From Atractiella rhizophila (taxonomy: Eukaryota), in NCBI GenBank assembly GCA_021432655.1, contig MU271192.1:1-64000 (forward strand): a DNA stretch of 64,000 nucleotides. The letters run 5' to 3'. Below are positions 14,731 through 58,632 of the stretch, one piece after another. Each line of letters opens with the position of its first letter. Position 1 is the first letter of the stretch. Position numbers and translations under genes: made by a program. The notes below the pieces were generated by a model. The model did no database searches and was not told where the DNA came from. It saw only the letters and a program-made list of their open reading frames with translations.

Positions 14731-15426
14731 AATAAATAAAATTTCTCTCCCTTTGCTTGCTCCTCTTCCTTCACGAGGAGAGCTTTCGTTGATGGTCGAA
14801 TTCGAAGTCCCCATCCTGTCGTTGAAGGGCGGCAGCGGTCTCCGGTCTTTCACGTGGTTCGTAGCCGTCTACATCGTCGACGCCTTCTGGGACCATCACT
14901 TGGGGAAAAAGAGCGGAGGAGCAGAGCGCTTAGAGATCGTCCAACGTTACGCCCAGAGACTCAGGAGGAAGAATTTGAAGTGCGCAAGATTGGAGGCTGT
15001 CTTGAGGATAGGATGCGTGCAGGTATCTACGGAAAGAAACATGGATTTGATTCGCAAGTGGGGAAGGCGAGGAGGCTAGAGAAGAACAAGGCGGAGGGTC
15101 AGGAAGGAATGGATGTTTTCTGTTCTAGATGGAGGAGCGTTGTTGGTCATCGAGGAGAGCCTCATACATAAAAAATGGCTCTAGAAATGATGTTAAAAAT
15201 AAATAAAATTTCTCTCCCTTTGCTTGCTCCTCTTCCTTCACGAGGAGAGCTTTCGTTGATGGTCGAATTCGAAGTCCCCATCCTGTCGTTGAAGGGCGGC
15301 AGCGGTCTCCGGTCTTTCACGTGGTTCGTAGCCGTCTACATCGTCGACGCCTTCTGGGACCATCACTTGGGGAAAAAGAGCGGAGGAGCAGAGCGCTTAG
15401 AGATAGTCCAACGTTACGCCCAGAGA
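14493..15426. repeat. Tandem direct duplication, 2 x 467 bp
   Basis: 14493-14959 matches 14960-15426 with one substitution seen (GATCGTCC/GATAGTCC). CT microhomology at the junction. Confidence 0.95.
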
Positions 15427-16533
15427 CTGATACTTGGAGCTTTCCGTACCACCCCAGCAACTGCTCTCGCTTACGACTCAAATCTACCTCCGGCAGTGGC
15501 ACGTCTCGACAAAGTTGCTACAAGAGCAATGCTCAGATTACTCTCCCTCCCCGATTCCAACCCAGCAGGCAAGATCGCGAAAGGAAAGCTCAACTCACCC
15601 CCACCAAAAAAGCATCGATCCCCACTCAACTCGCTCCTGCTCTCCGATCACTTAAATTTTCCCAAGGATCTCAAAATCATTCCGGCCTACGCCACCCATC
15701 CAGGTCACTCCCCGCCATTTGACACCTACATCGCGGACTCGAAGGAAGAGGCCATGCAGGACTTCAAGAAGCTAAAGGAGGAAGAGGACATCTGGATATT
15801 CTCAGATGGCTCAAGAACGGAGGAAGGGGTAGCATGCGGTCTGGCGATGACGAATCCGGAAAGCAAGGCAGGCTATAGGCTCAGCAACCAGGACGACAAC
15901 ACCATCTTCGAGGCAGAGCTCATGGGAATAGATCGAGCCCTAGCTCTAGGCACGGCACTCAACATTTCCAAAGGAACAGTCTCATCCCTCCGCATCTTCA
16001 CGGACTCTCAGGCAGCCATCAAAAACCTGTCGAAGAAACCAAGGTGCAAACCAGGAGTTAACATCGTCCTCAACATCAACAGGTTAACCGACAAATTTCG
16101 AAGACTTTACCCTACCTGCTCCATCTCCCTCCACTGGATACCAGGACACAGCAACATCAAAGGCAACGAGCTAGCGGATGCGGCAGCTAACAGTGCAACA
16201 GATCCAGAAACTGCAACAGGACACATCGTCATCTCGAGAAGCCCAGCCGCACTCAAAGCGATCATCACAACAAATCGATTCACTCCCAAAGAGGCCTCTC
16301 CCCCCCCATCCGGCAAGCACCACCACTCTCTATCTCGTCGACTCTCCCCGGATCAAACCTTTGACATGCTGAAGGAAATGCCACGTGCCCAAGCGTCAAT
16401 CTTCGTCCAGCTACGTTCAGGCCACACCTCCATCAACAATTACCTCCACCGTATCGGGGCATCAGAAGAACCGTCATGCAACTTTTGCGGAATGAGGGAC
16501 ACAGTCACCCACCTTTTTTTCGAATGTGAGGAA

Positions 16534-23899: not shown

Positions 23900-25055
23900 G
23901 ACTACGCTTCGACGATTGAGCTTGGGCCTCGTCCTCCCAACAATTCGCAGATAGGTGCCTATGGCGGCGCTCAAAGTTCTCAGCATCATGTACCTTTGAT
24001 GCAAGAAGAGCATAAGGCGACTCAGCAGGCGACGCAGAACGGTGATGATACAGGCTATCTGAAGCCTTTACCTCCAGGTCTGTTTTTTCTTCCCTCCTTC
24101 GCTTAACGCGACATAAAGCTAACATTGGAAGACATTAATAGATTGTTGGGGAGTATGCGCCCCATTCTTGCTCAATTCTCCAAGTACCTTACTTTGCTCA
24201 TGCGGTGCTTGCGATATGGTGGATAGAATGGTGCCCACCAGCCCAACCCTTTGCAGCCGCCCCATCCCTTTCAACCAGCCTCCGACAGAGAGACTTACTA
24301 TTGGAAGAGCAAAAAACAATTACGTTTGCTTGGACGCGAAGATTATTTCTAATTTCCATTGCGCGATTTGGATAGATCTCAATGGGGACGTTTGGTTGAA
24401 GGATACGTCGTCGAATGGAACGTATGTAATGGAGAGCAAAGTCGGGAACGGAATACTTACAATACTCAAGCTTACGGGGATAAGGTGACCGTTAATATTG
24501 TGTCGATGACGTTTTTGCTGATGAGCACATAAGTTAAACTCGGCAGTCACTCGGAAGGATATTGTGGACCTCCTTTTTACTTTCCCACCACTGTAGGTAT
24601 TGATCATCTGCGATGTAGGTTTTCGTTGGCAAGACGTACCTCTCGCTACGCGGTTTGAGAGGCGTGTTCCAAAGTGGAAGGATTTGCCGGCGGGTACTTC
24701 TCCCAAATGTATGACAGATCTCCTTGATACATTGCTGCGAGTGTTAAAGTGATGTACAGGTTACAACTTCCTCCAACGGCTATGCAGACAAAGGGTAGAC
24801 GAGCGGATGAGCATTGCAGAAGCTTGTCAACACCCCTGGGTCCTGGACGACGCAAATCTTCGGGTGTTGAAAACTCTACCATCTTTCTCCGAAGGACGGC
24901 TTCTGGAGTCGCTTGTTCCCGATCCGTCGTCCACTGCAACGAAAAGTATCCAGCCCATTCCAGAAGCCAACAGGTCTCCCGCCGACTCTTCTCCACATGC
25001 AACTGAAGACCAACTCCTTGCTGAAAGATTCGACCATGGATGCGTCAACCATTAG
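23900..25055 (+). pseudogene. Chk2/Rad53/Cds1-like FHA-kinase remnant lacking most of the kinase domain
   Basis: TQ-rich stretch (ATQQATQ). FHA motifs TIGR..ISNFHC..LKDTSSNGT. Kinase C-terminal signature FLQRL..DERMSIAEACQHPW follows within ~350 bp, with no VAIK/HRD/DFG found. Confidence 0.6.
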
Positions 25056-25468: not shown

Positions 25469-26402
25469 TCCTTATATATAAAGCACGACGGGTTATTAGC
25501 ATGACTCACGCATGTACTTTTTGAGCACTTCCCTCACCACCCACAACAAACCTGCCAATAATCTGAGCATACCATCAGAATACGCGTGTCGGCGCCTTTC
25601 GAACCGTGTACAGCAAAGCCTATTTGAAAGACGAAAAAAAATGTTTTCCTTACTGACTCAAGTGACTTCTTGGTCCACAACAACACCACCAAAATTCTGA
25701 GCATACCACCAGAATACGCATGTCAGCACCTTTCGAACCATATACAACAAAGCTTAAAGGACAAAAAATAATTGTCTTCACAAGTGTGTCAACGGCCTCC
25801 GTCCCTCTGGCCCCTCACCCACTTGCAAGGGGCATGGCCCCTTGAACCCTACTGTGACCGTTGTCAGGGTTCGAGTCCAGCACAAAAACACATTTTTCAA
25901 CCCTTTCAAAATAAAATTTCCTTGCAGGTTCAGAAAGGGGGGAAAGCATATGGAATATGATGGTATAATACATTTCATTCTATTGTGTATGGTGAGGGCG
26001 GTGTGAGGGCTCAAAAGTGTGTCTTATGACTCATGCCAAGAACTGATGAATCGTAGAGTAGAGGATAGGATATATAGGATGACTGAGTCAAGTGACCTAC
26101 TTTGCCACTTTTGGCAAGACTTTCCTTGCCTACTCAAAATAAGTTGCACTGCAAAGAGTTTGCCTGATAGTGTAGTTGGTGTTATGGTGAGAATGTGACA
26201 TGATTTGCTTTTGGTGTTGGTTTGATTCTCTGTTCCCTCACATTTTGTCACCCTTGAAGCCATGAGTGCCTGTTACCAATTTAACAGCTATGTAGTTTTC
26301 AAACAAGTGTTATGAGCACTCAATCGCTGATTATCTCTTAGCATGTTCTTAACAGTATAGTCAACCAGCGAAAACTAGATGGACGAGGGCCCCCCCAGCT
26401 TG
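25469..26402 (+). mobile_element. Non-autonomous Helitron derivative (~0.93 kb)
   Basis: Starts TCCTTATATATAAAGCACGACGGG as at 50208 and shares the ~135-bp duplicated subterminal unit. 26285-26365 matches the helicase stop/3'UTR at 53530-53610. Ends GACGAGGGC-8 nt-CTTG|T. Confidence 0.75.
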
Positions 26403-27367: not shown

Positions 27368-30300
27368 ATGGGCAAACGAACCAGAGGAAAATACTCCCGC
27401 AAATCTGTACTCGAAATACGAGCTGAACTAGAAGCTCACGGTCCAGCTTCCGATGAAAGCGACGAGGAATGAGAGTTGTTGTTGTTGTTGTTGTGATCAT
27501 ATTTCAGAGCTGTCAGACTATAGTCAACGTAGCTCTACATTCTGGGGGATATCACATTATTGAAAAGAAACACAGTTTACGAGGCGAAATTGGCCATGAA
27601 TGGGTTAACTAAGCGAAGTATACGTGTAATGTGTAAAGAAAAAGGCCCCCAACAATCCCCTTATAATGTTATGGGACTGGTAGAAGTAAAGACCGAGTGG
27701 GGGGTTACTGAATCGCGATGGCTATTTGTGTGAGGTAAATTATGCTTAGAAGATGCTGAATGGCAGATTGTGTTCCTCCTTGGGGACCCATGTGTAGGTG
27801 AAAAGAGTTCCGACCTCCGTCGTACGTTGGGTTCCTGCAAAAAGTGCCTCAGTTCGGAAGTGAAAAATCTGGACATAACTTGTTGTCTTTAATCTTCCCA
27901 ATCCTCCCTGCTGTCATCCTTTTCTCCTCTTGACTCCGCCGTGTGTTTCCTTTTTGCCTTCCTTCTATCCAAAACCCTCTGCGCCCTTGTGATCCATAAC
28001 TTGAATTTCCCGCTCCGTCTAATAAATTCCCATACCGCCTGCGTCGCCTCCGGTTCGCTCAGCAGGTCGCCCAGGGATCTGAAACGAACATCCTTTTTCG
28101 TCCTCATGCTCCTCACATTCAAAAAAGAGGTGGGTGACCGTATCCCTCATGCCCCAGGAGTCGCAGTTCGGTTCTTCCGCAATCCCTATTCGATGCAGGT
28201 AGTTGTTGTTAGAGATGTGACCAGATCACAGTTGGATGAAGATCGATGCCTGTGCTCATGGCATTTCCTTTAGCATTTCGAAGGTCTGTTCGGAGGATAA
28301 GTGCTGTGCTAAGGAGCGGTGGTGTTTGCCGGAAGAGACTGGAGGGGCGGGTACCTTGGGGATGAATTTGTCGGTGGTGATGATTGCTTTGAGAGCGGAG
28401 GGGCTTCGTGGGATTCTGATGTGACCTTGAGCTGATTTTGGATCTGTGGCTTTGTTTGCGGCTGTGTCTGCGAGTTCGTTGCCCTTGATGTTGTTGTGCC
28501 CAGGGATCCAGTGAAGGGAGACCGAGCATACCGGGAAGAGGTCTCGAAATTTGATGGCCAATTTAATGATGTTGAGGACAATACCAATTCCCGGTTTGCA
28601 TTTGGGTTTTTTCGACAAATTCTTGACTGCTGCCTGGGAATCCGTGAATATACGGACCGAGGAAAGTGTTCCTCGTGAGTTATTGAGCGCGATGCTCAAC
28701 ACCAGGCCGCGATCAATGCCCATGAGTTCCGCTTCGAAAACTGTGTTGTCATCGTAGTTGCTAAGCCTATACCCTGCCGCCATCTTTGGGTTCGTCATAG
28801 CCAGGCCACAAGCTACCCCTTCCTCTGTCCTCGAGCCATCTGTGAAAATCCAGATCTCCCCCTCGTCTTCCTTAAGTTCGTTAAAGTTCTGGAGAGCTTC
28901 TTCCTTTGAATCAGCGAGGAAAGAGAGGCTAAACGCAGCAAGAAGAACTTCACACGTGGGGAGGGCAAAGTCGAGGTTTTTTAATTTGGAGGGTATGTGT
29001 TTCATCAAGATTTCTTTACATTCATTTCTGATGGACTTGCCAGCATGACGGGCAGTCTCCGATTTATCCAAAGGGAACACGAAGCAATCCATGTGTCTAT
29101 TACTGCAAGTTGTGTGGGTGTGGGTGATGTTCATTTGTGAGGGTCATGTTGGTTCATTTATTTGTTGTCAGATCTGTACGCAGAGTTTGGGGTAACCAAT
29201 ACTCAAATATGAATAATCATCTTCACAGATGTCGGGAGCGAAAGAAGGCCGACATGGAGCTCCCCGCACTACCTCCTTCTGTTTTACGCGGTCACCAACA
29301 GATCCCAGTCAGTGTCACCATACCCCAAATCGACGAAATCTTTCAAAAGCTTGTTCAGTGGATGGTGCGGCATGATCACCCTTTCAAGATCTTTGATCAA
29401 GAGGAACTGAGAGATGCGTTCCAATTGGCGAGGGCTGGACTATGGATATACGGGTCGACTGCGGCGGAGGAGTGGTCAGGACGGTTGTACGATACGCTGA
29501 AAAAGAGCATGCAAGAAGAAATTGATGTATGTTGCTTTTCCTTTGTCTGTGTGCACATTCTTACATGATGCTGGTGTCAGGCACATCCAGCTGCAATCCA
29601 CATTGAGATTGACGGCTGGACAAGCAATGGATCTCTGCACCATATCGTTGGGATAATTGGGCATTTCATCGATGATGATTGGATCAAGCACGAAAGAGTT
29701 TTACGGTGCTCGGTCCTGCGCAACCCCACGACTGGTTTGGTCCTTGCCAAAAAAATTGCGAAGGTCTGTCAAGATAGAAGGATTCTGGACAAGCTGAGTA
29801 TGTTCATTTTGGTTCTGTGATTATAATTTGGATACAAGGCTAAAGGTTTTTATAGTGAATATCGGTTGTGATCATGCTTCGAACGAATTGTCTGCGTTGA
29901 CATACCTCGGTCCGGAACTGGCGATTCTTGGGCGGCAAGATGGATGGGATGACACGCACAACTTCAGCGGATGTGCACTTTATGTCATCAATCTTGCCGC
30001 ACAAGCTCTACTTGCTTCACTAGGAGCTGCTCCTGAACCCGACGGGCCAACACGAGCAATCCCGTTAGATGCTCCAGATCCCGATGACACCGAACCAGCT
30101 CCAGCTTGCAATGATAACAAGGATGAGGATGATGACAGCATCTCAATTGCGAGTTTGGAGTTGGGCTGGGATGAGATGGAGCTTGAGATAGAAGATGTCA
30201 CAGGGGGGGCCATTGCACTGACCGTGTCATTTCGAGCGGCTCGAGCAAAGGTATGCCGGCAGCCATAATGATCCGAAAAGTGACTTGTGTTCCTGACAGG

Positions 30301-33039: not shown

Positions 33040-34295
33040 CTTAATTTCAGACAAGAGACATTTGACGAGAGGTTCCCCCCCTCTTCGGCACCTTAGCTAG
33101 CATACAACTGGAATTGAGCGGATGGTGGAAAAGATGGTGGAGCATACTGGTTTCAGGGACAGTCGCGGGGTGACGGCAGGTGAAAAGCTCACTATATTTC
33201 TTTACACGGTTAGGAAAGCTGCTAGCAATCGAACAGTTCAAAGCCGCTTCCAGCATTCTGGAGAAACGGTTTATAGGTATGTTTCTTTTGCTAGCTAGGA
33301 GACAGGGTTATAAAGGGCCTAGGCATTTCCATGATGATCTCAAGCATTTGATTCAACCTGCACTCTACAAGCGATACGTGAAAGCAGTCGATCACAATAC
33401 CCCATCCCTCTGGAGATCAAAGATAATCCGAAATTCTATCCTTTCTTCAAGGATGTGCTTGGAAGCTGTTGTTCCCACGGCAGATCAACCACGGTTTGGA
33501 GATCACAACGGCAACATCACCCAGATTGCACTCATAGCCGTCTCATTCGACTTGAAAGTTGTTACCTGCGTGGCAGGATGGGAAGGGGGTGCAGCTGACG
33601 GTACCCTTTGGCATGCAGCTCGATCCACTTCACTGCGGCTGCCAACAGGGAAGAAGCTTTTGGGAGATGCAGGCTTTGGGCTAGGAGAGGATATACTTAT
33701 GCCCTATCGGAATGTGCGGTACCACCCGAAGGAATGGCATCAGGGAAATCTCAGGTTTGTCCTGCTCCATTCCAGTTCAGTGTCACAGAAGCTCATTTTG
33801 AAGCAGACCGGCAAATGCTCAGGAATTGTATAACCTGCATCATGCACAAGCTCACAATGCAGCTGAGGGAGCATTTGGAGTGATGAAGCGGCGCTTTGCC
33901 ATCCTTGAACTGATGCGAGAATACAAGTTTGAAACACAGGTTTGTAACTTCAATCTGTGCATGTGTGGTCCATCTAACTCTTTGGCTAGGCCGCTCTGAT
34001 CCCCGCTCTTTGTCTGATCCATAACTTCATACTACATTACGAGCCGTTTGAAATCAACGAATTCGAGCTTGAGACCCTCGATGCAGAAATTCAAGAGGCT
34101 GCAGTGCGGGATCAGAACAGAAACAGCAGTGCCGGGTCACTAGGAAGAAGTTCTGTTAGCAGTACAGAGTATCAACAAGCATTAGCAGAGCGGGATAGAA
34201 TTGCACAGGCAATGTGGGATCAGTATGAGGTCACAGTACTAAGGAGAGAAAGAACGGGGCAGAGAGGCAGAGGAAATGGGAGACGGAGGACTTGA
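33040..34295 (+). pseudogene. Harbinger transposase (DDE_Tnp_4), degenerate
   Basis: AGWEGGAADGTLW, KLLGDAGF, MPYRNVRYHPKEW, ELYNLHHAQAHNAAEGAFGVMKRRF, ALCLIHNFI. Confidence 0.88.
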
Positions 34296-36533: not shown

Positions 36534-37098
36534 TGTCAACTTGGACAAACATTAATGGGAGGCCAGATCGGTGAACAGGCCCCGGCCAGGGTTAGGTTTG
36601 CCGATTTACGAAAAGTACAAAAATGTACAACTCGATGTTTGAAAACAAATGAAGTTACTCCACCAAGGAGACATGTGTTAGGGCTGACACTATGTACGGT
36701 TGCCGATGGGCGATGCGTCTGTAGTGGAGATAAACCTAAGAGCATGATATGACATGAGAAGACTAACGTGTAGTGGAGATGAACCTAAGAGAATACTCTA
36801 AGGTCACTTCCACTACTCTCTGATCTATATACAAGTGGAATAACACTGCCACAATGTATAGAAGAGAGCAGATGAAACATGTAAGAGAAGTAAAAGGGGA
36901 AAGTGACAGTGGTATTACGTGGGGTTAATAAGAGAAGAATGGACACAATTAGGCTAAGTGGTGATGTAGGCACAAATGGGCAAACAGGCGGCCGGGCACT
37001 GATTTGCACTGTGTGCAAACAGGTGACTGGAGACGCAGAGTCATGTAGAATGCAAACAGGCGAACTGGGGCCGATTTGCGTAAGATACAAACCTGACA
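36534..37098. mobile_element. Possible LTR-like insertion within Gypsy gag
   Basis: TGTCA...TGACA ends, non-coding, with internal direct repeat TGTAGTGGAGAT(A/G)AACCTAAGAG. No TSD found. Confidence 0.3.
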
Positions 37099-37442
37099 CC
37101 GCTTTGCTGCCGACCACTGCTTTGCAACCTCGTGAAGCCAATACCCCGATGATATGGAGGTGGACGCAACAAAGTTCAGACCCCCTCATTGTCAAAGATG
37201 TCAAAAAATCTGACACAAAGAGAAGGAATGCAAGATGTCTGTGAGCAAAGAGCAGAGAATATTTCGACACTCGTCTTGTACAACAAGAACGACGATCTAC
37301 ACAAATTGCCGACCAGTCGCTGAAAACGAGCTTGACAGATCTGGATGAGGATTTTTGAGACGGCAATGTGTGAAAGGAGTGTCCCCATCGCCAACTCACA
37401 ATTCATTTTCGTTAACTAAAATCACTTCCCACAAAGCGCCGC

Positions 37443-37556
37443 TGTCAGGATGGCTGCAGACCAACAGCTAACCAACTGAACTAAAAGAGCTAATGATGGG
37501 AGTTTACACCCACCTTGGTCTGTACTTAAGGTATATCAGGGGCTCGAACCCTGACA
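37443..37556 (-). mobile_element. 114-bp solo LTR with tRNA-like B and A boxes
   Basis: TGTCAGG...CCTGACA ends. Perfect 5-bp TSD GCCGC. About 93% identical to 57638-57751. Confidence 0.9.
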
Positions 37557-39534
37557 GCCGCTTTGCGCAGATTTCCCTTCTCCTGAACATGACTCCCCAT
37601 TTCCAAAGTTGCATTTTCCCTTTTGGAGACAAAGATGTGCAGATGTTGCAAAAATATATGACAAAACCCGCTCATGTTCAACAACTGTATCCCTTGTCAG
37701 CTCGAAAACGAAACTCAGAACTGTGTTTCATCATCCAAATTCCCATCCTTGACATTGCTACATCGGCACTTGTTGACAGCAGGGCAACCACTTCCTTTAT
37801 TTCCCAAAACATTTCTGCATACAACCTACCCGTCACTCAACTCCCTTCCTCAGTGCCTGTTTATAATATCGACAGATCTCTCAATCAGGGAGGTTCCATC
37901 TATTCTGTCGCTTATTTACCCATTTCCGCTGCGCTCATCACAAAGTTTGGCAATTTGTGGTGGCAGAGTTGGGGACGGTTGAGATGATTCTGGGTCATGA
38001 TTGGTTAAGATACCACAACCCAAAGATTAACTGGGTGTTATGGAAAGTTGAGTTCTCTTGCTGCCCCACCAGTTGCAACATGTTTGATGTGTCTACTACA
38101 TGCAAACAATTTCCATCGTTGTCTGCTTCAATACGAGCTGCCATGATGAAATCACAGAAACTAGCGAAAGACGTGGCAGCGATGGGACCAAAAAATGTTG
38201 TTGAAATACCAGCGCAAATCACTGACTTTCAGACATTTTTGACGACGAAAAATGCAAAACTTCACTTCCTCTCCGGTGACCTTGGGGACCATGCCATCAG
38301 CCTCAAACCAGAAGCTTGACCACATACTGGTCCTGTCTACCCTTGAAGAGAGATGAACAAGCGGTGCTCAACCAATTCATCGATGTGGAACTAAGCGCCG
38401 GTCGTATACGTCCCAGCACAGGAGCACATGGCACTTCCATTTTTTTTATGCACAAAAAGGACTCACCTGAACTTCATCCCTTTTTGACTATCACAAGTTG
38501 AATGAAGCCACAGCCAAAGACAAAACATCACTCCCCATCCAAGCTGACCTCTTGTCCATGGTCTTTGCTGAGAAATTCCCCAGCAAGATTGACCTGAGGA
38601 AAGGTTTCAACAATTTGAGCATCAAAGATTGAGCGAACACAAGCGATGCGTCACACAAATTGTGGACTTTTCTAACTGTTGGTAACGTATTTTGGAGTCT
38701 GCAACTCACCAGCGACTTTTCAGGCATTCCTGAACTCTATTTTCGCACGGTGATCATTGCTGTGTTCATCTTCATATACATTGACGATATCCCGATTGTG
38801 ACAGAGACTGAAGAGGAACACTGGGAACGTATTCAACAAGTTTGTCAAATTTCACGCAAAAATGGACTTTATGTAAATTTGCCGAAATGTGTTTGGTGTC
38901 AAGATGAGGTGGAATATCTAGGTTTGATCATTTCCAGCAGAGGGATCAAACCAGATCCAGTACAAGTCACAGAAGTGATGGATTGGCCAGAATCAGGAAA
39001 CATGAAAGAGGTCCAAATGTGCTTCGGCTTCGCTCACTTCTACCACCACTTTTGCGACAGATTCAGTCACATCGTGCGACCTTTATATGAACTGACAAAA
39101 AATGAGGTTTCCTGGGTCTAGGGGTAGATCAGCCACATTCGTTAAAACAGCTCACGATTTCAGCGCCTATTTTGGCACATCCTGAACCAACAGGATGATT
39201 TTTGCTCAAAATGGACACATTGAAGTTCACAACAGGCACCGTTTTGTCGCAAATGAAGTCAGATGACAAGTTTCATCCTCTCAGTTTCGTATCAAAATCG
39301 CTCGATGCTGCCTGGAGGAACTATGACACCTATGACAAAGAGATGCTCGTGGCTATGTGTGGACTGCAAGAATGGAGACATCTCCTTCAGGGCACTGATG
39401 AGCCATTTCTGAATTGACACATCACAAAAACCCACATTAGATCACAGAACTTGAATCTTCCAACTTCACACGTTTATATCGCCCCGGGATGAAATTCCAC
39501 AAAACCAGATGCGCTCAGTCGGTGACTGGACCAC

Positions 39535-43292: not shown

Positions 43293-44739
43293 AACTGAAG
43301 TGAAGGGCGAAGCAAACCTGCCGGTGGAGCTCAAGGCTTTTGGTTCTCTCCCCCCACCCTCCGCACTCTTCGGTAACATCCTCCCTGACCTCGCAGCTGG
43401 TGGTAGTGGTGGGGGAAGAGGGGGACTTGGAGGGATGTCGATGGGCTTGGGAGCCTCGCCTATGGCTTCAACTAGTAATCATACGCTCGACATGGGTGGA
43501 TTAGCGGGATTGGGAGTGTCCGGTCTCGGAGGAGGAGCTGGAGCGAGCGCTGGTTCGGCTTTGAGCATGGGTTTAGGTGGAAGTGGGAGCGGACAACCAA
43601 GTCAGGCATGACAGCAGGACATGAGAAACCCCCCTCCGTCCAAACCTCGATCTGAAAGAGATGCTGAAAGCGGGAGGTTCTTCCCAATCTCCACCTGGTT
43701 TATCCTCCATCCCTTCACTCACCGGACCTGGTCCCTCGACGTCCACTAATCCTATGCCGTCCCATCTATCACCCAGCTAGCCCTCTGATCCGATAAAGAG
43801 GTCTTCCACCTCCCTCGATTTGCCCCTCAGATCTTCAACTGGAGCATCGTGCTCAGGAGGTCCTCATGCCTCTTCCTCCTCCTTGTCGACGGCCAAATCT
43901 CCCGATCCGAACAATTTGACGTGTTCCAGGTGCCACTCGGAAGGGGTAAAATGTTACTGGATCACTGGTATCGATAAATTTGTCCCGTGCGCAGGAACGG
44001 GGAAGGGGTGTTCGAGAAAAGATGTGGCCGGAGCTTGAGGGGATAAATCGTGAGTCGTTTAAACGCTACATGGACGATCTGACCTGACTTGATTGGATGC
44101 AGCAATCGAGTGTCCACTTCACATGGTTCGTCTCCAGCACGCCACTTGTCTCCCCATCCCACCCGTCCATTCCCCTCAAACCACACACCTCCATCCACAA
44201 CCCTCCTTTCCCCCTCCTCAGGCTCCTTAAACTCCTTCGACCAACTCGTCAACTCTATGCTTCCGCCCCATTCTGCTCTCAGCCACACCAAAGGCGCCTC
44301 CTCCGCATCCTCCTCCATGCCCCACCGCATCGCGAACAGCGCGCTCGAGGGACTCGGACTCTGAGTGCCTTCTGTTGGACCTTCTGCCCGGATCGAGTTC
44401 GAATGGGAATAACAACGATCCTTTCAGCAATTTCTTGAACCAGAGCTTGAGGAAGACGCCAACGCCGAGCTCAAGCTCGAATTTGGGTCTGGGTTTGGGA
44501 GGAGGAGGGATGAATGGAGGGGGCGACGGGTCTGCTACCATGAGCAAAGGAATGTTTAGTATTGATCGGTTCTGAATCTTTACCAACTTTTCCTTTTCTG
44601 CATGTACAGGAAATTACTCCTGCTTACGGCAGCGAGATGAATTATTTTGGTGGAACGAACAACAATCAAACTTTGACCTGCCTCCTGCCGCACAGGAGCA
44701 TCTAACACTCAGCCCGAGATTCCAACGAAGCTCGTTCAG

Positions 44740-46006
44740 ACCCAGCTGCGTCCAGACACATTTCGGTGGGCCATTCAAGACTTGATGAAGCATAGGAATA
44801 CTCCCATCACGGGAGACTTCTTCATCGATGGGAAGAGGATTGATCTCCTCCGTTTGTTCCAGGCGGTCCTAACGCACGGTGGTTCCCTCTCTACAACGCA
44901 GAAGAATCAGTGGCCAACGGTTGCGCAGGCAGTGGGCTTCCAGATCAATCCTTCCGATCCTCAACGCTCCATGCAAACCGTCAATCACGTCAAGACTCAG
45001 TACACAAACGTGCTAAACCCTTTTGAGGAGCTTTGGCTCAACGCAATCACCAAAGTGCCACATCCAGGATCTTCTTCTGCCGTAGGAGGAAACTTGTGGT
45101 TGCTGCACAACAAGCAGGTTCAGGTGCAAGGACAACATCCTCCTCCACCCCTTCAGCCTGTTCTTCCAAAGGCAAACGAACCTCCTCCAACTCAGCAACA
45201 ACACCTAGTTCTGACTGCTTCATCCATTCTTGCATTGCCCATTGAGCTGTTGGACCTCATTTTTGATTATCTCCTGGCACAAGAGGACAGAAATTCAACA
45301 TGTGATCTCTGGCAAAACCAGTTCCGGAAGTATGGATGAGTGTACAAGCTATGGCAGGTGCGACTGATGGCACTATCACCGGAACCCAGCACAGCGCAAG
45401 AAAAAGTAACTTATCTGAAGCACTTTAAAGTCTTTCAACGACGTTGGTTCACCATCAAATATGGCTATTCGGACACGAACTACATTTCCCTGCATGCATT
45501 GATTTCAGATATAACCCCAAACCAGGCTGTCTCCCATCTATGCCTCGCACATCCTGTGGGTTAAGGAAGAGCGTGTGCCACTGTTGGAGCTGGCTCATCT
45601 CGAAACCATCAAGCAGTTGGAGTTGGATGGTTGGGATGAGCCTACAGCCATTGATTGTTTGCTCAACCGACGGTTTTCCAGTCTCGTGGTAGTTAAATTA
45701 ACGCGATTGCACACACCTCTTTCAGAGCCTGTGGCCAAGCGCGACCTCAGATGTATGAACGTTAAGCAGCCCCATGTTGAATTTGGAAGCGAGTTATTCA
45801 TGTCTTTGCTGATCAATTTTGGAGTTCAGACGGCACACCAAATGTACTTTCGGCCACTTACCCCAATCTCTCCGTTCTCTGATCAACAGCAACAAGCGCT
45901 CCGACTTGCTGTGGAACCGACGATCCCCCATGCTGTTGATCCCGGGATGCTGACTAACTATACGTCACATTCTATTCTCGATGGAACACGTCTCTGCGGA
46001 GCCTGA
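44740..46006 (+). pseudogene. Chimeric ARID (BRIGHT) + F-box fragment, with stops downstream
   Basis: IDGKRIDLLRLFQAVLTHGG..NQWPTVAQAVGF..QYTNVLNPFEELW (ARID), fused in frame to ILALPIELLDLIFDYL (F-box). Stops and frameshift after 45339. Confidence 0.7.
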
Positions 46007-47649: not shown

Positions 47650-50600
47650 CTAAGAAGAAGATGCTACGGTGGTGGCATTGTTGCCATTCGAGTCGGAGAG
47701 TTGGCTCATGGCAGCCACCGGGATTGCCATCACTTGAATGCCACTTGTGTCCTTCGAATTCGGCACAGGAGCAGAAATATTGGGCACATTTGTGCTTGTC
47801 GTAGGGGCAGCAAGTTGCGACGGTATGCACTTCGGTGTATCCATCGATGGGGTTGAGGATGAAGGCACTGGTTGGTCGGGAGGATTCGTGTCAACAGTCA
47901 CGCCAACGGCGCTATGTGCGAAACAGTGAGCGAAATGGACAGAGAGAGAGGAAGTACGAACCTCTTTTCTTTGTGCAACGTCTTGATATGTCGTACAAGG
48001 GTAGAGTTCCTCGTGAACGTCTTTCCGCAATCGTCGATCTTGCACACATGTTTCTTCTCTCCCGAGTGCGTGTTCCGATGTCGGGCTAGGGACGAAGAGT
48101 CCGAAAAGCTACTCTTGCATCCTGGCCAGTCACATAAATGTGGTTTCTCCCCCGTATGCGTGCGATGGTGCACCGTGAGTGCCGACCGCTTTATCACAAC
48201 ATCGCATGGGTTACTTCGGTGGAAAGAAAGCGGAAATGAGATTGAGGGACTGACCTGCATGAACGCTTTGTCGCATCCTGTAACGGTACACTTGAACGGC
48301 TTCTCGCCCGTATGCGACCTCATGTGCCGTTTCAGGTCTCCTGAGCGTGTGAAGACTTTGCTGCAACCCGCAAAAGTGCAGTGGAGCGGAGGATTAACCT
48401 TCTTCTTCTTCGCGCCTTTCGGTCCTCCATCCTCCACCTCTTCCTCCTCCTCCTCCGCATCCGCCTGCCGCAGCGAAAGGCCGGAAATGGACGTCGAGAG
48501 GGGTAACGTAGAGCTTGAGGTTGAAGCTTCAGCACGAAGATCTAGCAGAGATGGTTGCTTGGACATGGACGGGAGAGGAACAGAGGGTCGAGGGAATTGG
48601 AATAAATTCGGATTGGATTGGTGTTGTAGTAGTTGTGGTTGCCGTTGAGATTCGATTCGCTCAAGAGGCATGACGGATCTTCCTGTCTCACAATCGCTAT
48701 AGGATCTTCCCCTGGCGGCAAGTCCAACTATGGCCCCTGATGATGAGATGGGAGGGAAATTCCCAAACATGCCAGCTCGATCCAAAGCGCCGACATATCC
48801 CTTATCGCTCGAGAAAGCGCGTTTCCGTTTCTTTCCCTCTCCCATCATCATTCCAGGTCCCAGTTCCATATTCATGAGGGACATAGAAGCAGATGACGGG
48901 ATGGGGAAGCCGGAGATGGAGTTACTCTTCGCTTTTCCTCTCTCTCTCCTCACGTTTCTCCCCCACAACCATTCGTCTGCCTGCTCATCTCCTATAGCGC
49001 TCACATTCGGCTCGATGGACAAATTCTCCCAATCGAACCCCAGGCTCTCACTGCTCTCAGGAATGCCTGTGCTAGTTTCTGAACTCAGCATCCCAAACGA
49101 ACTGTCGTCGGTAGGGTATAGACTGCTCATGAGCTCGGAATCGAGGTCGTCCCTGCTCCAGGCCGCTCGGGAGAAGGGGTATTCGGAGTCTAATAGGAAA
49201 GATGTTGGCGGAGGAAGGGAGGAGGAACGATGTACTGGTGGTGGAGTGGAAGGCGTGGAGAGGGAGAGGTGTCGGTTGTGCGTAGGCCTACCGCGAGGTT
49301 CGGAGTAATTGGACGGCGCCGTCGAGGTCGAAGCGAACAATATGGGATCGTATGACGACGCGGTCGCTGGAGTGGCAAAAGGTAAGGAAGGAGGATAAGG
49401 GACGGGAGTGGTTGGATGACTTCGCGTCTTTCCTTTATCCTCCCATTCTCCTCCTCCTCTCCCTCCATCAAACCTAAGCCGTTCATTTTCCACCACCAAT
49501 GGATCAAGAGCTCCAATCTCTCCAGACGAAGTGGTAGCAAAGAGATCAAACAGGTGCAGTTGATTGGGCACGGGGGTGGATGGGTGGCTTTTCGCCACTC
49601 TTTCCTTCTCCCGCACTGTGTTGGTGCTGACACCCGTCAGTCCATTTAGGCTCTGATAGAGATCTAAAGGATTTGGATACATGTACGGGGAGCTGGGTTG
49701 AGACATGGTCCGCGGTTCCCGGCGAGGGATTGAGGTACCAGGGGAAGAGAAGGAAGATACAGGAAGAGGGACGTCCATCGGCTTGAAGGGAGAAGTGAGA
49801 TCCATTTCGAACGGCTTGAGCTGAGCTGCTTGAGGTTGGGGTTGGGATTGTGACTGTGATCGTGAGTGAGAGGACAGGGCGGAAGAGCCTGCGAAGGGAT
49901 GATCCGTCCCTGTGTGGGAGTGAGGGAACATCTCGAGCTCCATCTCCATCGCCTCACTCTCAACGCCTACGTTCGCTGCACCAACTCCTACTCCAACACC
50001 TTCCACTCCTCCACCAAGTGGTCGTTCGATCTGTCCACTGGCCGCCGCTTCCATCGCCTTGTTATAGAATCTCCTCGCTTCATCCAAGAACTCATCCAGG
50101 TCCTTAAATTTGAACGCATCGTCCAAGTTGAGGGAATTGAAGAGGTTGCTCGTTGCCTTTGACGCATTTTGGTTGCGCGAGCGGGTTGGGGTGTTCCATT
50201 GTGGAAATCCTTATATATAAAGCACGACGGGTTTTGACCATGACTCACACATGTACTTTTGAGCCCTTATGTCACCACCCACAACAGTCCTTTCAAAATT
50301 CTGAGCATACAGCAAGAATACGCGTGTCGGCGCCCTTCGAACCGTATACAGCAAAGCCCATTTGAAAGACGAAAAAAAAATTGTTTTCCCCAACTGACTC
50401 ATGTGACTTCTTGGTCCACAACAACCCCCTAAAAATTCTGAGCATACCACCAGAATACGCGTGTCAGCGCCTTTCCAACCGTATACAATAAAGCTTATTT
50501 AAAGGACAAAAAATAGTTGTCTTCCATGACTGAGTCAAGTGACCGACTTCGGCACTTTGACAAAAATTTCCTTACCTACTCAAATAAGGTAGTAGCAAGG

Positions 50601-53600
50601 TACAGAGTGTGCGCGATGGTGTAGTTGGTGTATGGTTGGGTAGTTGAGTTTTGGCTGATTGGTGTTGGTGTGGGTTCGATTCTCAGGCATGTCACATTTG
50701 TCACTCCCAAATCCTATTGTATGCAAACTGCGTGACCGCAATTTCTAATTTCTTCAGAGCTTTCTGAGACTTCTCATGTCATGCACCAAAAACTGTTGTT
50801 TGCCAACTATGAGGGAAAGTGAGCAAGCATTCATACAAGTGAAACAGTTTCTTTCACCACAAATATGCTTCCTAACAGTCTACCATAGTATCCCTCAGCC
50901 TGTTAGCATCAAATCAAATCAAGCAAAAAAAGCATAGGTGTGTGGACTCTGGCTTATATATTCTTCACTCATATCATTTTGTTATGTGCAGCAAGCTACA
51001 CTCTCATGCCATGTGCAATTCAGAGAAATCAAACAAGAAATCGAGAGTATCGATCCAAACGGCATCAATGTCTGCAGCAGGAGGCGCCACTATACCAGGG
51101 TCGACCTGTAAGAGAGAGGCAACGCCCTGCACGTTTTAATCCTACTCCACCTACTCCATCTCAACATGAGACAAGATCAACTAGGGCTCCACGTCAGTGT
51201 CAGCGGCACCGTCGAAGCTCTTCACTATCTATATCATCACAACCAGCTCGACGACATTGGACAGCATTCATCCTCCGCTGAGGAGTACAGTGAAGAAGAA
51301 ACCTGATCATACCCATCCTCTCCTGATCCTGATGGTGTGGACAGTGATGAGGATAGGGCATTAATCCCGTTGTTGCGAGGCGAAATAAGGCAACATCACT
51401 ATCCTGCATTCAACTACTCACCTGATATGGATCTTGAGGCACACCACCTCTCTACTTGGGGATTACTTTGTAGACATTGCAAAGCCTTTCATTGGATGGA
51501 AGAGAAGATCGTTAACAGCCCACAATGAAATCCAAAGTTTGCATTGTGCTGTCTCTACAGCAAGGTGCTGCTACCTGTTCCTCCGCCTCCACCTGAAGAG
51601 CTATGAAAGCTTTTTACACATGACAATACAACAGGTAAGTATTTCTATTCAATTTTTTTGCATATACATATCTGAGAGGAACAAGCATTATAGAGTCAAC
51701 GGCATTTCGAGAGCATATCAGGATATTCAATAATGCTTTTGCATTTACATCCTTAGGTGTCCGCCAGGTATCAATTCCTGGACATGGTCCCTACTCCTTC
51801 AAAATTCAGGGAGAGCTGTGCCACCTTATTGGCACTCTTTTACCACAACAAGAAGGGTGTGAAACATTTGCACAGGTCTACATTACAGATTCAGCTGTAC
51901 AGACTGGACGAAGAGTTGGCAACACTTCAATATCACTGAATCGTAGGACGCTTGAAGACCTTCAGGCTATGCTCTTCCGTGTCAACCCATATCCCAGGAT
52001 CTACAAATTTGCAAAAGAAAGAATGGAACAGGATCCCACTACAACACTACATCTTTGCACATCGCCCCACGAGATAGGGACCCAACACGCTACAACATTC
52101 CTGTAGCCAGTGAAGTTGCTGTAGTGAGGTAGGAGACGGTAACAGAGAAGAATATGGAGTGGCCAGAGATATTGTCATCTAGCTCAGGGCAACCAGGACC
52201 GGTAGCAACTTACGGCATGTGAATGAGCTCAACTCAAATTATCTTCCACTTCATTTTCCTCTTCTGTTTCCAAATGGGGACCAAGGATGGCATCCGCAGA
52301 TTCCGTATCGAGACCACCTGCCTGCAGATCTTCCTCCTCGCGAGCGAGAGCACTTCAATGATGACGGCATGCAAGTTGGTAATTCTGGGGTTCGACAACG
52401 TGTCAGCCAAATGGAGTTCTATTCTTACATGTTGCATCAATGAAATGATATATTCTCACTCCCTCTCTACGGTGGTCGGCTACTGCAAGAATTGGTAGTC
52501 GATGCTTATGCTCAAATTGAGGCGAATCGACTCCGCTATCTGCTGTTCAATCAAGTCTATTCTTCGAGCCGAGGTGTATCAAGGTCTTACGGATGCCCTT
52601 GCAGAAGGCTATTCTTTAGAAGATATCGGGAGGCGGACTATATTACCATCAAGTTTCACTGGCAGTCCACGTTCAATGAATCAGCTGTTCCAGGATGCAA
52701 TGACTATAGTTGGTGCCAAAGGACCCCCAAATATCTTTACAACCTTCACTTGCAACCCACACTGGGCAGAGATCACGGAAGCCATCCTACCAGGACAAAA
52801 ACCAGAGGATCGACCAGATTTGGTTTCAAGGGTTTTTTGACTGAAGGCTCTGGAGTACATCAAGGATTTAGTGGTACGACAGATTTTTGGAAGGGTTATC
52901 AGATATGTCTGGGTCATTGAATGTCAGAAGATAGGTCTACCACATGCCCACATCATGTGGATGGCATCAACGATCACTTGATTCAGTGGCTCGAATCCAT
53001 AGGAGATCGGGTATATTATAGTACAGATCAAATTATAGATGATGAGGGAGATCTCAGAAATCGCTTCTCTGTCGAGTACCTGAATACCCTGGAGATCTCT
53101 GGATTCCCTTTGCATTGTTTACACCTCAAGACCGGTGTACCCATCATTCTTCTGCGAAATCTCAATCCATCTGCTGGCCTGTGCAACGGCACGCGGCTCA
53201 TTGTCACTCAGCTTCTCTGACGAGTCATCGAAGCAACCATCATTACAGGTACACATAGTGGCGAATCAGTTCTCATTCCTCGAATTGGCATTGACAGTGC
53301 AGTATCAAACCAGCTTCCTTTTCAATTCCGGCGCTTTCAATTCCCTGTGCGCTTAGCGTTTGCCTTAACTCTGAATAAAGTGCAAGGACAATCTGTTGGA
53401 CAAGTGGGTTTGTACTTAGAGTCTTCTCCTTTCTCTCATGGACAGCTTTATGTTGGTCTTTCACAGGTTTCAAATGCAAACAATTTATGAGTATTGGTCA
53501 AAACAAAGCAAGGAGAAGAAAACAAGCAAACAGATAATGTAGTTTACAAGGAAGTGTTACAAGTACTCAATCACTGATCATCTCTCAGCATGTTCCTAAC

Positions 53601-54026
53601 AGTATAGTCAAAAGCTGAAGTGGTTCTCCGAGGTACGAGGAGACCACTCAGCTTTCATTGTTTTTTGAAGACAGTAGAGTACATATGGTGAGTCTGTGCT
53701 CGCCGAAGGCGAGGCCTCACGCAGTGGCTGCCAGAGGCAAGAGCTCCAGGCAGTGGCCGCCGGAGGCTGGGGTCCAAGGGGCGAAGCCCCTGGCGGGGGG
53801 GGATGCCCGAGGGACGAGGGCACTGACACACTTGTGGGAGAGAAGAGGAGTAGGCGAGGTCGAGAGGGTTGTGTGTCAGGTGGGTGAGGGAATGATGGTC
53901 CGTCGGGCCTAGGGTTCGCGTTTGTTGATGAGGATGGGAGTGCGTCGGGAGAGAGATGTGGGGAAGTGGAAGAGAAGGTGGTGGGATATTGGGAAGACCC
54001 AATGCAGCGGCAAGAGTGGACATCAT
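47650..54026 (-). CDS. C2H2 zinc-finger transcription factor (4 fingers); first exon interrupted by a Helitron
   Basis: Four fingers with TGEKP/SGEKK linkers. Introns at ~48192-48254 and ~47912-47961. Removing 50208-53834 joins MMSTLAAALG..SSLP in frame to FPQWNTP..LDDAFKF. Confidence 0.9.
50208..53834 (+). mobile_element. Helitron (internally deleted, degenerate RepHel), inserted at A|T
   Basis: 5' A|TCCTTATATATAAAG. 3' hairpins GGGGCGAAGCCCC and GCCCGAGGGACGAGGGC, then CTTG|T. RepHel motifs inside. Confidence 0.95.
51070..53577 (+). pseudogene. Helitron RepHel pseudogene with most of the helicase deleted
   Basis: CRHCKAFHW, NNAFAFTSLG, PLLFPNGDQGW, ILPSSFTGSPR, TFTCNPHW, DRPDLVSRVF, VIECQKIGLPHAHI, then a jump (~52955) to LLRNLNPSAGLCNGTRL, QFPVRLAFA..NKVQGQS, HGQLYVGLS. 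Confidence 0.93.
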
Positions 54027-55918: not shown

Positions 55919-58632
55919 ATGTCTCCCAAGCGAACTGCTGCCCATAGAAACCTCTGCACGATTACTTCTACAAGATTCCAAGGCAAGCCGCTAATAATGA
56001 GAGACTCCATTGCCTTGGATGCTTGTCAGTGAAGAAGGTGGAAATCGAGAACCGTCTCTCAGCCCCAGGGAATGAAGAGGAGCTAAAGAGATACCGTAAT
56101 AAAACGGTGGCAGAGCAGAATCATCAGGCAGCTCAAGAAGTGGGACTGGGATTTGGACTCACGACTTTAGCAAGATGGCAAACCATCTGCATGACTGCAA
56201 AAACGTTGATGCTGAGCTTTGTAAATATGACTTAGATATATCAGATGAGATTAGGACAAAGGCAAATTCCAAGTATCAGGTGAGTTTTGTCCTTATCTTC
56301 TACTACTACACACTAAAGAAGATGATGTAATGTGGCAAAGTCTGCTCCATGATTAAGTCGTTGTCGAGGCATCGCATCACAGCCTTCCCCTCCTCGTACT
56401 CATCTGCCTCCTCCTGCTCCTCCTGGTGCTTCCTCCATGCACTCTTCTCAGACTAAGCTCCCTGTCTTTGCGGCCCCCTCCATGCTTTTGTCAAGCAAAG
56501 AAGCTGAAGACTGGAAGGAGCAACTCTGCCAAGCAACAGCTTCTGCAGGACTTCCCTTCCAATGGATCGAAAATGCAGCAGTCCACAAGTGCTTCACCAT
56601 GCTGAGACCTTCAGTTGATGAGCATTTCCCTTCTGCAAAAACTCTTGGAGGTGCTATTTTGAATCGAGGGACCAACAATGAAGAAATGAAGCAGAAGAAT
56701 GCGCTTGCAAATGCGGATCATCAATGGGTTGGGATTAGTGAAGATGGTTGGTCGACTGGCAAGACTCAGATGACAGCATTCACATCAAGCTATGTGATGG
56801 ATGGAGGAGAGCACTGGTGACATATCCAAGACATTATCGACACAACAGGTCAGGCTAAGGATGCGGATACTCTCATAGTCCATTTTCTAGGCCAAGTAAA
56901 GAAGGTGCAAAGTGAGGAATATGGAGGGAGAGTGAGTTATTTTGTGACAGATGATGGTGGAGAATGTAGTGTAGAAAGAGTCTCCTGTCTACATTGCCCA
57001 ACATTCTCTCATTTTTCTCCTGGACTCATCAGGTTGGTTTCACTCTTTGTCAGTGTTCTGAAATGACAGTTTAAGGACATTATAGATTAACTTGATTGTC
57101 AGAGATTTTCTGAAAGTGGATCCACAAGTTTAGACATTATCAAAACCTCCATTTCTATATCGACTTGGTTCAACAATCACAATGAAGCTCTCAAGTGGCT
57201 GCGACAAAAGCAAATATCCAGTGACCAAAGCGTGTCATTTTCCTTCTTGCTGTCATCACAAGGTGGACAACTCACTTCCTTTGCCTGAATCGGCTACTAT
57301 GCTTACATCGATGTTTTGGTTCTCTGGTTTGGGAGAAGATAGATGATCTCGTCAAGCTTGCAGGTTACGGAATAGTGAGATTAAATGTGGAGAAGCTCTT
57401 CATGGAGATAGAAAATCTGAGCTTTTGGAATAAAGTCGAGCTTATCCAAGATCAACTGTGTCCTGTAGCAATTGCTGCAAAAGTTGCTCAAGGAGGCTCC
57501 TCTCATCTTTACACCATCTTTCTCATGCTAGGACGTCTCTTTACTCATTGTGGATATGTGGAATTCTGTGCCTCCAACACTTACAAAGTTCTGCTTAAAA
57601 GCCTTGAAAAATGTTAGAACCATGCTGATCAACCTATTATCAGGAAGGCTACAGACCAACAGCTAACCAATTGAACTAAAAGAGCTAATGATGGGTGTTT
57701 ACACCCATCTTGGTCTGTACTTAAGATATATCAGGGGCTCGAACCCTGGCACTTATCTTCATCTTTGCTGTCATTCAGGATCCTACTTTCTGTACAGAAG
57801 CTTTCTCCTCTCAATGTGGCATCTCATTCATGTCTCTCCTTTTTCAATTGGAACAAGTTGCATGCAGAATCTTCCCTAACTGGATCGAAACTAACCATGA
57901 CATGTTCAAGACTTCCATGACTGCCTACCTAGCCCAGAAAGGGGACTTCAGTCCTCAAATAATGGAATGGTTCACCAAAAAGAAGGCTCAAAACCCACCC
58001 AACGCCGCAATGCTCGATCCTCTTACCTTTTGGAATCTTGTTGACAGCCATTGACATGGTTTGCCATACGCATCCTCTCAATTGTTCCCAACGCCGGTTT
58101 CTTAGAGCACATCTTCTTTAAAATGGGACACCTCAAACCAGAGCGACACCACAGGCTCAGTACTTAAAAGAATGCAAAGTTGACCCGTCTCTCGATCCGT
58201 ATTGGGGAAGAAGAGAAGGCAAACCTACATATTAAGAAGCGATCCAGGGAACCAGCAGAACTTTGGAACTTTCGATTCAGTTCTCGAGCAATTGGTGAGT
58301 CAGGATGATGGAAATGGGTTCATTGATGGTGTTGGAGAGATTACTGGTAATGATGACTTACCAGAGGCTGGTTTCAGAAGCTTTACGAAGGACTAACCAA
58401 GGAGAAGATGTACCATTATCCAAATGGAGAAAGTAGCTCGTTCAAGGTGAGCCTTCGAGACTTGTTCATGGGAATGCCCGAGGTGGGAGAGGCATTTGAG
58501 CAGTTGGGTAGTAAGAGACTTGAGGAGAAGGAGGAGCTGTTTGACCAGTGGACTATGGAACAGCTAGCAAAGGTGAAAGATGACGAAGGAAATGCTTCTA
58601 CTCAAGTGGACTTGACATTATTTGATGATTGA
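55919..58632 (+). pseudogene. hAT transposase 4 (DUF659-type), heavily degenerate
   Basis: LPFQWIEN, ISEDGWST, YFVTDDGGEC, AVITRWTTH, ADQPI|FIFAV (split by a solo LTR), AIRILSIVPN. Many stops. TIRs not resolved, though TTTAC/GTAC-rich subterminal-like DNA lies at ~55680-55810 and ~58760-58920. Confidence 0.82.
57638..57751 (-). mobile_element. 114-bp solo LTR (second copy)
   Basis: TATCAGG...CCTGGCA. TSD CCTAT/CTTAT. Excision restores the hAT reading frame DQPIFIFAV. Confidence 0.9.

Follow-up and report, generated by a model that had tools for sequence, protein, structure and literature searches.

A dispersed 114-bp insertion with tRNA-like boxes in B-then-A order: a probable solo LTR with Helenus as its closest known kind

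What kind of element is 114 bp long, ends like an LTR and carries the two boxes of a tRNA-like Pol III promoter in the order B before A? We analysed such a unit in a 64-kb window, by which we mean the whole stretch of DNA under study. The original prediction had described a 114-bp TG..CA unit with a second copy that differs from the first at eight positions, and its coordinates and counts proved correct. We examined how the unit was inserted, what its tRNA-like pieces are, which known elements it resembles and which account of its origin is the most probable.

Transposons abound in the window: Helitron helicase domains lie at about 59.9-63.1 kb, and there are non-LTR RNase H/zf-RVT ORFs and fragments of CACTA, hAT and Harbinger-type transposases. 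Host-like genes are few and comprise a C2H2 zinc-finger protein, an ARID domain and an FHA domain. The look-alikes of the encoded proteins, by feature and by structure, are weak and mostly fungal, with Basidiomycota among them, and the homology search returned one weak relative.

Copies, termini and target sites

We compared the two copies by script. They are equal in length and in orientation and show 8 differences, which leaves copy 2 identical to copy 1 at 106/114 positions (94%). The TG..CA termini of copy 1 form a perfect 7-bp inverted repeat. The coordinates of the unit, its flanks and its internal features are listed in Table 1. Both copies had been predicted to carry 5-bp TSDs. This holds exactly for copy 1, but the flanks of copy 2 agree at only four of five positions. 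The two copies are not the two LTRs of a single 20-kb element, because each has flanks of its own and the outer flanks are unlike each other (GCCGC versus CTTAT).

Table 1. Features of the 114-bp unit, its flanks and the surrounding repeat (strand − is the sense of the tRNA-like pieces)
Feature	Positions	Strand	Remarks
Copy 1 of the unit	37443..37556	-	plus-strand ends TGTCAGG / CCTGACA
Copy 2 of the unit	57638..57751	-	plus-strand ends TATCAGG / CCTGGCA
Left TSD of copy 1, GCCGC	37438..37442	.	exact 5-bp match to right TSD
Right TSD of copy 1, GCCGC	37557..37561	.	exact 5-bp match to left TSD
Left flank of copy 2, CCTAT	57633..57637	.	imperfect TSD, 4/5 versus right flank
Right flank of copy 2, CTTAT	57752..57756	.	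imperfect TSD, 4/5 versus left flank
T-arm-like hairpin CAGGG-TTCGAGC-CCCTG	37537..37553	-	unit nt 4-20; 5-bp stem, 7-nt loop, perfect
B-box consensus, copy 1	37540-37550	-	unit nt 7-17, inside the T-arm; GGTTC present
D-arm-like 16-mer, copy 1	37468..37483	-	unit nt 74-89; D-arm/A-box piece extends to about nt 91
A-box-like dodecamer, copy 1	37472-37483	-	unit nt 74-85, part of the D-arm-like 16-mer
B-box consensus, copy 2	57735..57745	-	identical to copy 1
D-arm-like 16-mer, copy 2	57663..57678	-	one purine-purine change in the A box
Sole T4 run on the sense strand	37483..37486	-	unit nt 71-74; last T is the first A-box base
Central hairpin, 8 bp with 4-nt loop	37495..37514	-	unit nt 43-62; perfect in copy 2 and most other copies
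Long-range stem	37454..37524	-	pairs unit nt 33-42 and 94-103; copy 2 has 10 bp, copy 1 has 8 bp
RVT_1 in the repeat around copy 1	38633-39118		domain match
RT_RNaseH_2 in the repeat around copy 1	39199-39414		domain match

Four DNA runs and no RNA run were listed as containing this sequence. We placed public contigs from the two best-matching DNA runs, which come from one sample (X1 and X2), possibly that of the source organism itself, on positions 37100-37900. Three contigs in each run contain a joint from 37437 to 37557 that skips 119 bases (114 + 5), with 6 ambiguous letters. The contigs with this joint come from other copies of the flanking repeat, in which the target site is unfilled. 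Since the site lacks both the unit and one of the duplicates, the unit is a true insertion. A 263-nt contig present in both runs matches 37443-37554 only, with five other letters and one gap, and is flanked by other sequence on both sides; it therefore represents a further copy of the unit elsewhere. The neighbourhood of copy 1 is repetitive throughout in the contigs of both runs, and copy 1 is nested in a degraded Ty3/gypsy-type pol repeat. The inverted TG..CA ends, the 5-bp duplication, the unfilled site and the multiple copies together point to a dispersed mobile element inserted by a retroviral-type (DDE) integrase.

We searched the window for relatives and partners of the unit. Within the 64 kb there is no paired or head-to-tail unit and no PBS or PPT, and the PBS motif common in fungal Helenus elements has no match there at ≤2 mismatches. 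A sensitive scan of the window for further, diverged copies found none above the shuffled null (best score 25, versus null maxima of 27-33). One candidate relative, at 25862, shares 14 bases with the 5' end of the unit; the likeness ends after 17 nt and lies within the shuffled null, and we rejected it. We listed all other TGTCAGG/CCTGACA sites in the window and found among them no pair with a matching TSD and no autonomous partner. The regions 50150-50800 and 25700-26350 gave no matches at E ≤ 1. Outside the window, a scan of metagenome contigs with a 22-mer of the unit returned one locus, a chance match in unrelated AT-rich DNA. Prokaryote genomes gave no match to a two-anchor pattern, and another scan of them gave a single chance match, in a bacterial MAG.

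tRNA-like pieces, their order and the fold of the unit

The unit had been predicted to open, on the minus strand, with a perfect T-arm that contains a B box, and to carry a D-arm-like A box near its other end. Both pieces were confirmed at the predicted positions, in B-then-A order, and the D-arm-like match extends over a whole 16-mer. Both boxes are also kept in the second copy, the B box unchanged and the A box with its one purine-purine difference. Only one of the eight differences between the copies falls in the A box and none in the B box, a count that, from two copies, decides nothing about the conservation of the boxes. The A box reads TAGTT, with a T in place of the C of the Helenus/tRNA motif TRGCY.

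We assessed by shuffling whether the pieces exceed chance. A 14-mer around the B box has three matches in the window at ≤2 mismatches, against a shuffle mean of 0.36, and 1 of 100 shuffles reaches three. For the D-arm 16-mer pattern, also at ≤2 mismatches, there are two matches against a shuffle mean of 0.09, and no shuffle out of 100 reaches two. The B-box consensus motif used was GGTTCRANNCC. On its own this loose consensus is weak: it has three matches in the window, a count reached by 11/100 shuffles. The T-arm/B-box and D-arm/A-box matches, far above chance, show that both pieces are tRNA-derived, and on the minus strand they stand in the order B before A. The sense strand has a single T4 run; this run, which overlaps the first base of the A box, is a candidate Pol III stop and R boundary.

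As a whole, the unit is not recognised as a tRNA. ARAGORN reported 0 tRNAs in the window. Rfam gave 0 families at the gathering score in the window and no tRNA match at E ≤ 10 around the unit; the matches that it did return around the unit at E ≤ 10 are a 17-nt T-arm match to the model of mascRNA, which is tRNA-like (E 3.3), and three meaningless ones. We counted pairs by hand in the standard tRNA register and obtained 4/7 for the acceptor, 1/4 for the D-stem and 5/5 for the T-stem, while the anticodon stem reaches 4/5 pairs only in a shifted register. The well-kept tRNA features are the two promoter boxes and the T-arm only. A TATA-like stretch follows directly after the T-arm, at unit nt 21-27.

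The unit also has a predicted fold. A central hairpin is enclosed, together with the D-arm-like piece, by a long-range stem (Table 1). Copy 1 has two derived changes in the central hairpin. At 37501 and 37513 the majority letters of the other contig copies are those of copy 2, so the perfect hairpin is the majority form of the family. The fold of copy 2 beats 200/200 shuffles on both strands (z −3.8 and −4.1), whereas that of copy 1 is unremarkable (z −1.6 and −1.8).

When two units are set head to tail, arithmetic places the A-box start 47 nt ahead of the B-box start, with 48 nt from T8 to G53. In a tRNA with such a D-loop length, the distance from T8 to G53 in standard numbering is about 45-47 nt. 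Tandem units had been predicted to restore a tRNA-like A-then-B spacing. The claim stands for a direct junction (47-48 nt) but fails for units separated by an internal region of the size known from fungal Helenus (51-354 bp), where A to B would span about 100-400 nt and would not be tRNA-like. We joined each copy to itself by script and ran the four sequences (two single, two joined) through ARAGORN. With default and relaxed settings, 0/4 gave a tRNA. A 96-nt 'tRNA-Ser' called in both joined units at the 80% threshold is spurious, its anticodon CGA being the T-loop. Neither the lone unit nor the head-to-tail pair forms a recognisable tRNA.

Comparison with known elements

The resemblance to tRNA-derived TRIMs that the original prediction had drawn was borne out, in that Helenus is a real published group and the closest known kind. 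Helenus elements are TRIMs with tRNA-derived sequence in their LTRs (Kojima 2024, Biology 13:119, PMC10886601). The group comprises 113 families in rust fungi (Pucciniales) and single families in three Agaricomycetes (Kojima 2024, PMC10886601). It is plausible that the DNA analysed here comes from a fungus in one of these groups. Fungal Helenus elements have 5-bp TSDs, LTRs of 106-284 bp, many of them 109-123 bp, and internal regions of 51-354 bp; the whole element is under about 1 kb, with lengths up to 1263 bp (PMC10886601). The fungal elements are thought to be mobilised by Copia elements, and many of the fungal families are left only as solo LTRs with 5-bp TSDs (PMC10886601).

Our unit is like these LTRs in several respects. 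Its 114 bp lie within the range of fungal Helenus LTRs, and it combines TG..CA ends with a 5-bp TSD, exact for copy 1 and 4/5 for copy 2. Its terminal strings TGTCAGG and CTGACA occur in published families: Helenus termini include tgtcagg... (Helenus-6_PGr, Helenus-5_PTrit) and ...ctgaca (several families) (PMC10886601). It also has tRNA-derived A and B boxes that make no working tRNA, here in two separate pieces. Decayed tRNA stems with the boxes kept are a pattern of both Helenus and SINE heads (Kojima 2024, PMC10886601).

The layout of the unit differs from that of Helenus. In Helenus, a box A motif TRGCY...YGG lies upstream of a box B motif GGTTC (PMC10886601). All Helenus LTR consensuses inspected, among them Helenus-9_PSt (112 bp) and Helenus-6_PTrit (111 bp), have a contiguous block with A before B and then a T-run near the 3' end, and the legend of Figure 2 in the same paper describes the tRNA-like part as aligned to whole tRNAs as one block (PMC10886601). 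In our unit, in contrast, the B box is at the extreme 5' end, the A box is near the 3' end and the T-run lies directly 5' of the A box. We made 12 substring look-ups in the published Helenus consensus file, in which line wraps can hide matches. None of the five element-specific strings of the unit was present, and the only strings found were generic tRNA-arm strings and short 8-9-mers. A limited full-text literature search found no description of an LTR with B before A. The layout of the unit is a variant outside the published description of Helenus.

Cassandra is a second point of comparison. Its RNA has a terminal duplication of only 18 bp, as stated in the introduction of Kojima 2024 (PMC10886601), and tandem arrays of it are reported by Kalendar et al. 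2020. With the reading proposed for our unit Cassandra shares the principle that an LTR borrows an internal Pol III promoter, and it has a very short terminal redundancy of the RNA and tandem LTR-internal arrays. It differs in that the promoter is that of 5S and not of a tRNA, and in that it belongs to plants. No Cassandra/Ajax-type 5S promoter was found: Rfam gave no 5S match, either in the window at the gathering score or around the unit at E ≤ 10.

tRNA-derived SINEs carry A before B at their 5' end, have a LINE-like or simple-repeat tail and are flanked by TSDs of variable length that arise from target-primed reverse transcription. With SINE2 elements the unit shares a tRNA head in which decay has spared mainly boxes A and B, and a T-run as candidate terminator. 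It differs in its B-then-A order, the lack of a tail, the fixed length of 114 bp, the inverted TG..CA ends and the 5-bp TSD. In the permuted tRNA genes of red and green algae, the 3' part lies upstream of the 5' part; these genes are single-copy, have acceptors that pair and give working tRNAs. The unit likewise carries a tRNA 3' part upstream of the 5' part, but it is a dispersed insertion and its halves are unpaired.

Preferred reading, alternatives and what the unit may mean

Judging from its sequence and flanks, the unit is probably an LTR, and most likely a solo LTR. Its parent may be a TRIM, a Helenus-like miniature LTR retrotransposon of the TRIMp3 kind, an assignment that we make tentatively and hold at somewhat short of an even chance. 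The units would then be solo LTRs left by LTR-LTR recombination of a miniature non-coding LTR retrotransposon, and the B-then-A order would be a footprint of LTR assembly (U3-R-U5). In a two-LTR parent, Pol III would begin the RNA in the 5' LTR, a few bases ahead of the A box. This genome-length RNA would cross the PBS, the internal region and the PPT, read through the B box at the 5' end of the 3' LTR and stop at the T-run. From such an RNA, reverse transcription would yield LTRs in B-then-A order. The A box would precede the B box, as a working promoter requires, only where the element is complete or units lie head to tail, and a lone LTR would be without a type-2 promoter.

That a split Pol III promoter is actually in use is plausible but seems to us rather unlikely. 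Slightly less likely again is the full model in which the promoter would be cut by the LTR boundary, with the A box in U5, the B box in U3 and the T-run marking a redundancy of roughly a dozen bases or less, and in which, in the boldest form, the 114-bp unit would be the whole element. The retention of the boxes and the T-arm while the other stems decayed speaks for selection on promoter function and not for uniform decay, and a very short R has a precedent in the terminal duplication of Cassandra RNA. Against a split promoter, the T4 run falls within about a dozen bases of the transcript start, where transcription in the 5' LTR would have to read through it, the A box has a T where the motif has a C, and the internal lengths known from fungi would put about 100-400 nt between A and B.

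The alternative that survives best is that the unit is the solo LTR of an ordinary Pol II-driven, possibly autonomous multi-kb retrotransposon. The tRNA-like pieces would be inert relics, from an old SINE or tRNA insertion, from a rearranged Helenus LTR or from two unrelated tRNA-like scraps, and the junction spacing would be a coincidence. We regard this as possible, though on the unlikely side. Such an LTR would bear an identical integrase signature, and the TATA-like stretch after the T-arm and the failure of ARAGORN and Rfam to recognise a tRNA both agree with it. T-arm-like strings also occur inside the internal regions of published Helenus and Copia elements (PMC10886601), and tRNA-like scraps therefore need not be promoters. 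By a rough reckoning, we infer that an A box at a random position would come within 3 nt of the tRNA spacing by chance in about 8% of cases. What this alternative explains less well is that the best-kept tRNA features are exactly the two promoter boxes, with the stems outside the T-arm decayed. In addition, 114 bp is very short for the LTRs of autonomous elements and typical for Helenus, and the window yielded no Copia RT (RVT_2) that could accompany it.

The 7-bp inverted repeat and the strong fold of copy 2 count against the LTR reading because they would also fit a MITE with 7-bp TIRs and a 5-bp TSD. Such an element would have been mobilised by a DDE transposase, integrase-like or otherwise, and its tRNA pieces would be captured or incidental. 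We consider this explanation improbable. The inverted termini of copy 1 are perfect, copy 2, whose fold no shuffle out of 200 equals on either strand, is the one nearer the family majority, and hAT, CACTA and Harbinger-type domains are present in the window. To our knowledge, however, the termini of the unit are unlike the TIR starts and TSD lengths of hAT, CACTA and Harbinger elements. Bao et al. 2010 (PMC2836005) give 5-bp TSDs and TGTNR ends for TDD-4/5 of the Ginger2 group, as in our unit, but they also give Ginger TIRs of 40-270 bp, against an inverted repeat of only 7 bp in the unit, and 4-bp TSDs for most members. The termini and TSD of the unit closely match those of fungal Helenus/Copia LTRs, and no integrase-type transposase was seen in the window.

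A bolder alternative dispenses with a parent. The unit would be a unit-length 'LTR-only' retroelement: read from the T-run, it would be the circular permutation of a complete Pol III unit like that of a SINE, with A box, B box, structured tail and TTTT in turn. A borrowed integrase would cut a circular or tandem intermediate, RNA or cDNA, where two units meet head to tail in a palindrome, and would insert the 114-bp form. At 47-48 nt, the spacing across the junction is almost exactly what a tRNA has, and the permuted unit would finish with the T-run. The junction would be a 14-bp palindrome, because the two termini of the unit are reverse complements, and would thereby be like an LTR-LTR circle junction. 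Tandem arrays are known for Cassandra (Kalendar et al. 2020) and are reported for one Helenus family (Kojima 2024, PMC10886601). Such a life cycle is without known precedent, however, and the transcript would start too near, or inside, the T-run and the A box. No head-to-tail copy was seen, and no contig fitted two places, although contigs built from short words cannot hold the repeat twice. We rate this explanation as very improbable.

Least credible of all, a permuted tRNA gene or pseudogene, with the 3' half placed first, would account for the order of T-arm and would-be 3' acceptor, spacer, would-be 5' acceptor and D-arm, but it is effectively refuted by the TSDs and the unfilled site of a multi-copy insertion and is at odds with the 4/7 acceptor pairs and 1/4 D-stem pairs in register, and chance resemblance is excluded by the shuffles for the D-arm motif.

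The preferred reading, a solo LTR of a Helenus-like TRIM, bears on a puzzle posed by Pol III TRIMs (Cassandra, Helenus and Ajax), in which a promoter followed by a terminator inside each LTR should halt the RNA before the internal region. If the A and B boxes straddle the LTR boundary, promoter and terminator would fit a single genome-length transcript, and if the split promoter is true, a working promoter would arise only in two-LTR, tandem or circular forms and every solo LTR would be silent from birth. If the pieces are mere relics, the unit would be one more small LTR family. Helenus was discovered by tRNA-/SINE-based screening (Kojima 2024, Methods 2.1, PMC10886601). Split tRNA-like pieces escape screens of this type, and such families may therefore be uncounted in fungal genomes.

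Transposon fragments and host-like genes

The features annotated in the window are listed below. The host-like genes (C2H2 zinc-finger, ARID and FHA) are scattered amid the transposons, and a large protein search returned a single weak relative of the zinc-finger protein. Positions 6561-7076 are an assembly gap of 516 N.

Coordinates of transposon-related and host-like features in the window
Feature	Position	Strand	Domains
CACTA tnp2 transposase fragment	5251-6186		
Non-LTR-type ORF	15172-16536		RNase H / zf-RVT
hAT transposase fragment	16989-17474		hAT dimerisation domain
FHA-domain exon	24123-24485	plus	FHA
Harbinger-type transposase fragment	33174-33830		DDE_Tnp_4
Degraded Ty3/gypsy-type element	36800-39414		RVT_1 (38633-39118), RT_RNaseH_2 (39199-39414)
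ARID-domain exon	44677-45336	plus	ARID
C2H2 zinc-finger protein, 718 aa	47898-50054	minus	C2H2 zinc finger
Helitron	59889-63081	minus	Helitron_like_N, PIF1 helicase, Pif1 2B

The domains of the Helitron lie in broken frames, and partial, inverted copies of it occur at 52621-53835. At 14493-15428 a segment of 467-469 bp is duplicated in tandem almost without change (99.8% identity), and the duplication overlaps the start of the non-LTR-type ORF. This ORF has an inverted relative, 73% identical, at 28110-28917.

Copy 1 of the 114-bp unit, the putative solo LTR with split tRNA-like boxes, sits inside the degraded Ty3/gypsy-type element. This element has a high repeat number in the contigs of X1 and X2, two DNA sequencing runs of one sample, and A>G and T>C differences between its copies in these contigs are numerous.

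A repeat pair, one copy with box-like stretches in the normal order

Two copies of a repeat of ~500 bp are found in the window (25469-26251 and 50208-50704). They share 87% identity across 318 bp and contain tandem sub-repeats of ~134 bp. The 25-kb copy carries ~288 bp (25784-26071) that are missing from the 50-kb copy, and no clear target-site duplication was found around this stretch. Within it, TGTCAGGGTTCGAGTCC at 25862 and the beginning of the 114-bp unit have 14 bases in common; the likeness stops past 17 nt and its score falls inside the shuffled null.

An A-box-like stretch, GTGTAGTTGG, lies in the 3' part of the repeat. There the 50.6-kb copy also has a B-box-like stretch, GGGTTCGATTC, and its two box-like stretches stand in the normal order, A then B. 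A search of 25700-26350 and 50150-50800 gave no Rfam tRNA match at E ≤ 1. A decayed tRNA-derived SINE is one possible identity of the repeat; another is a classical LTR of the Helenus type (TRIMs whose LTRs contain tRNA-derived sequence, Kojima 2024; in the consensus LTRs inspected it is a contiguous A-then-B block).
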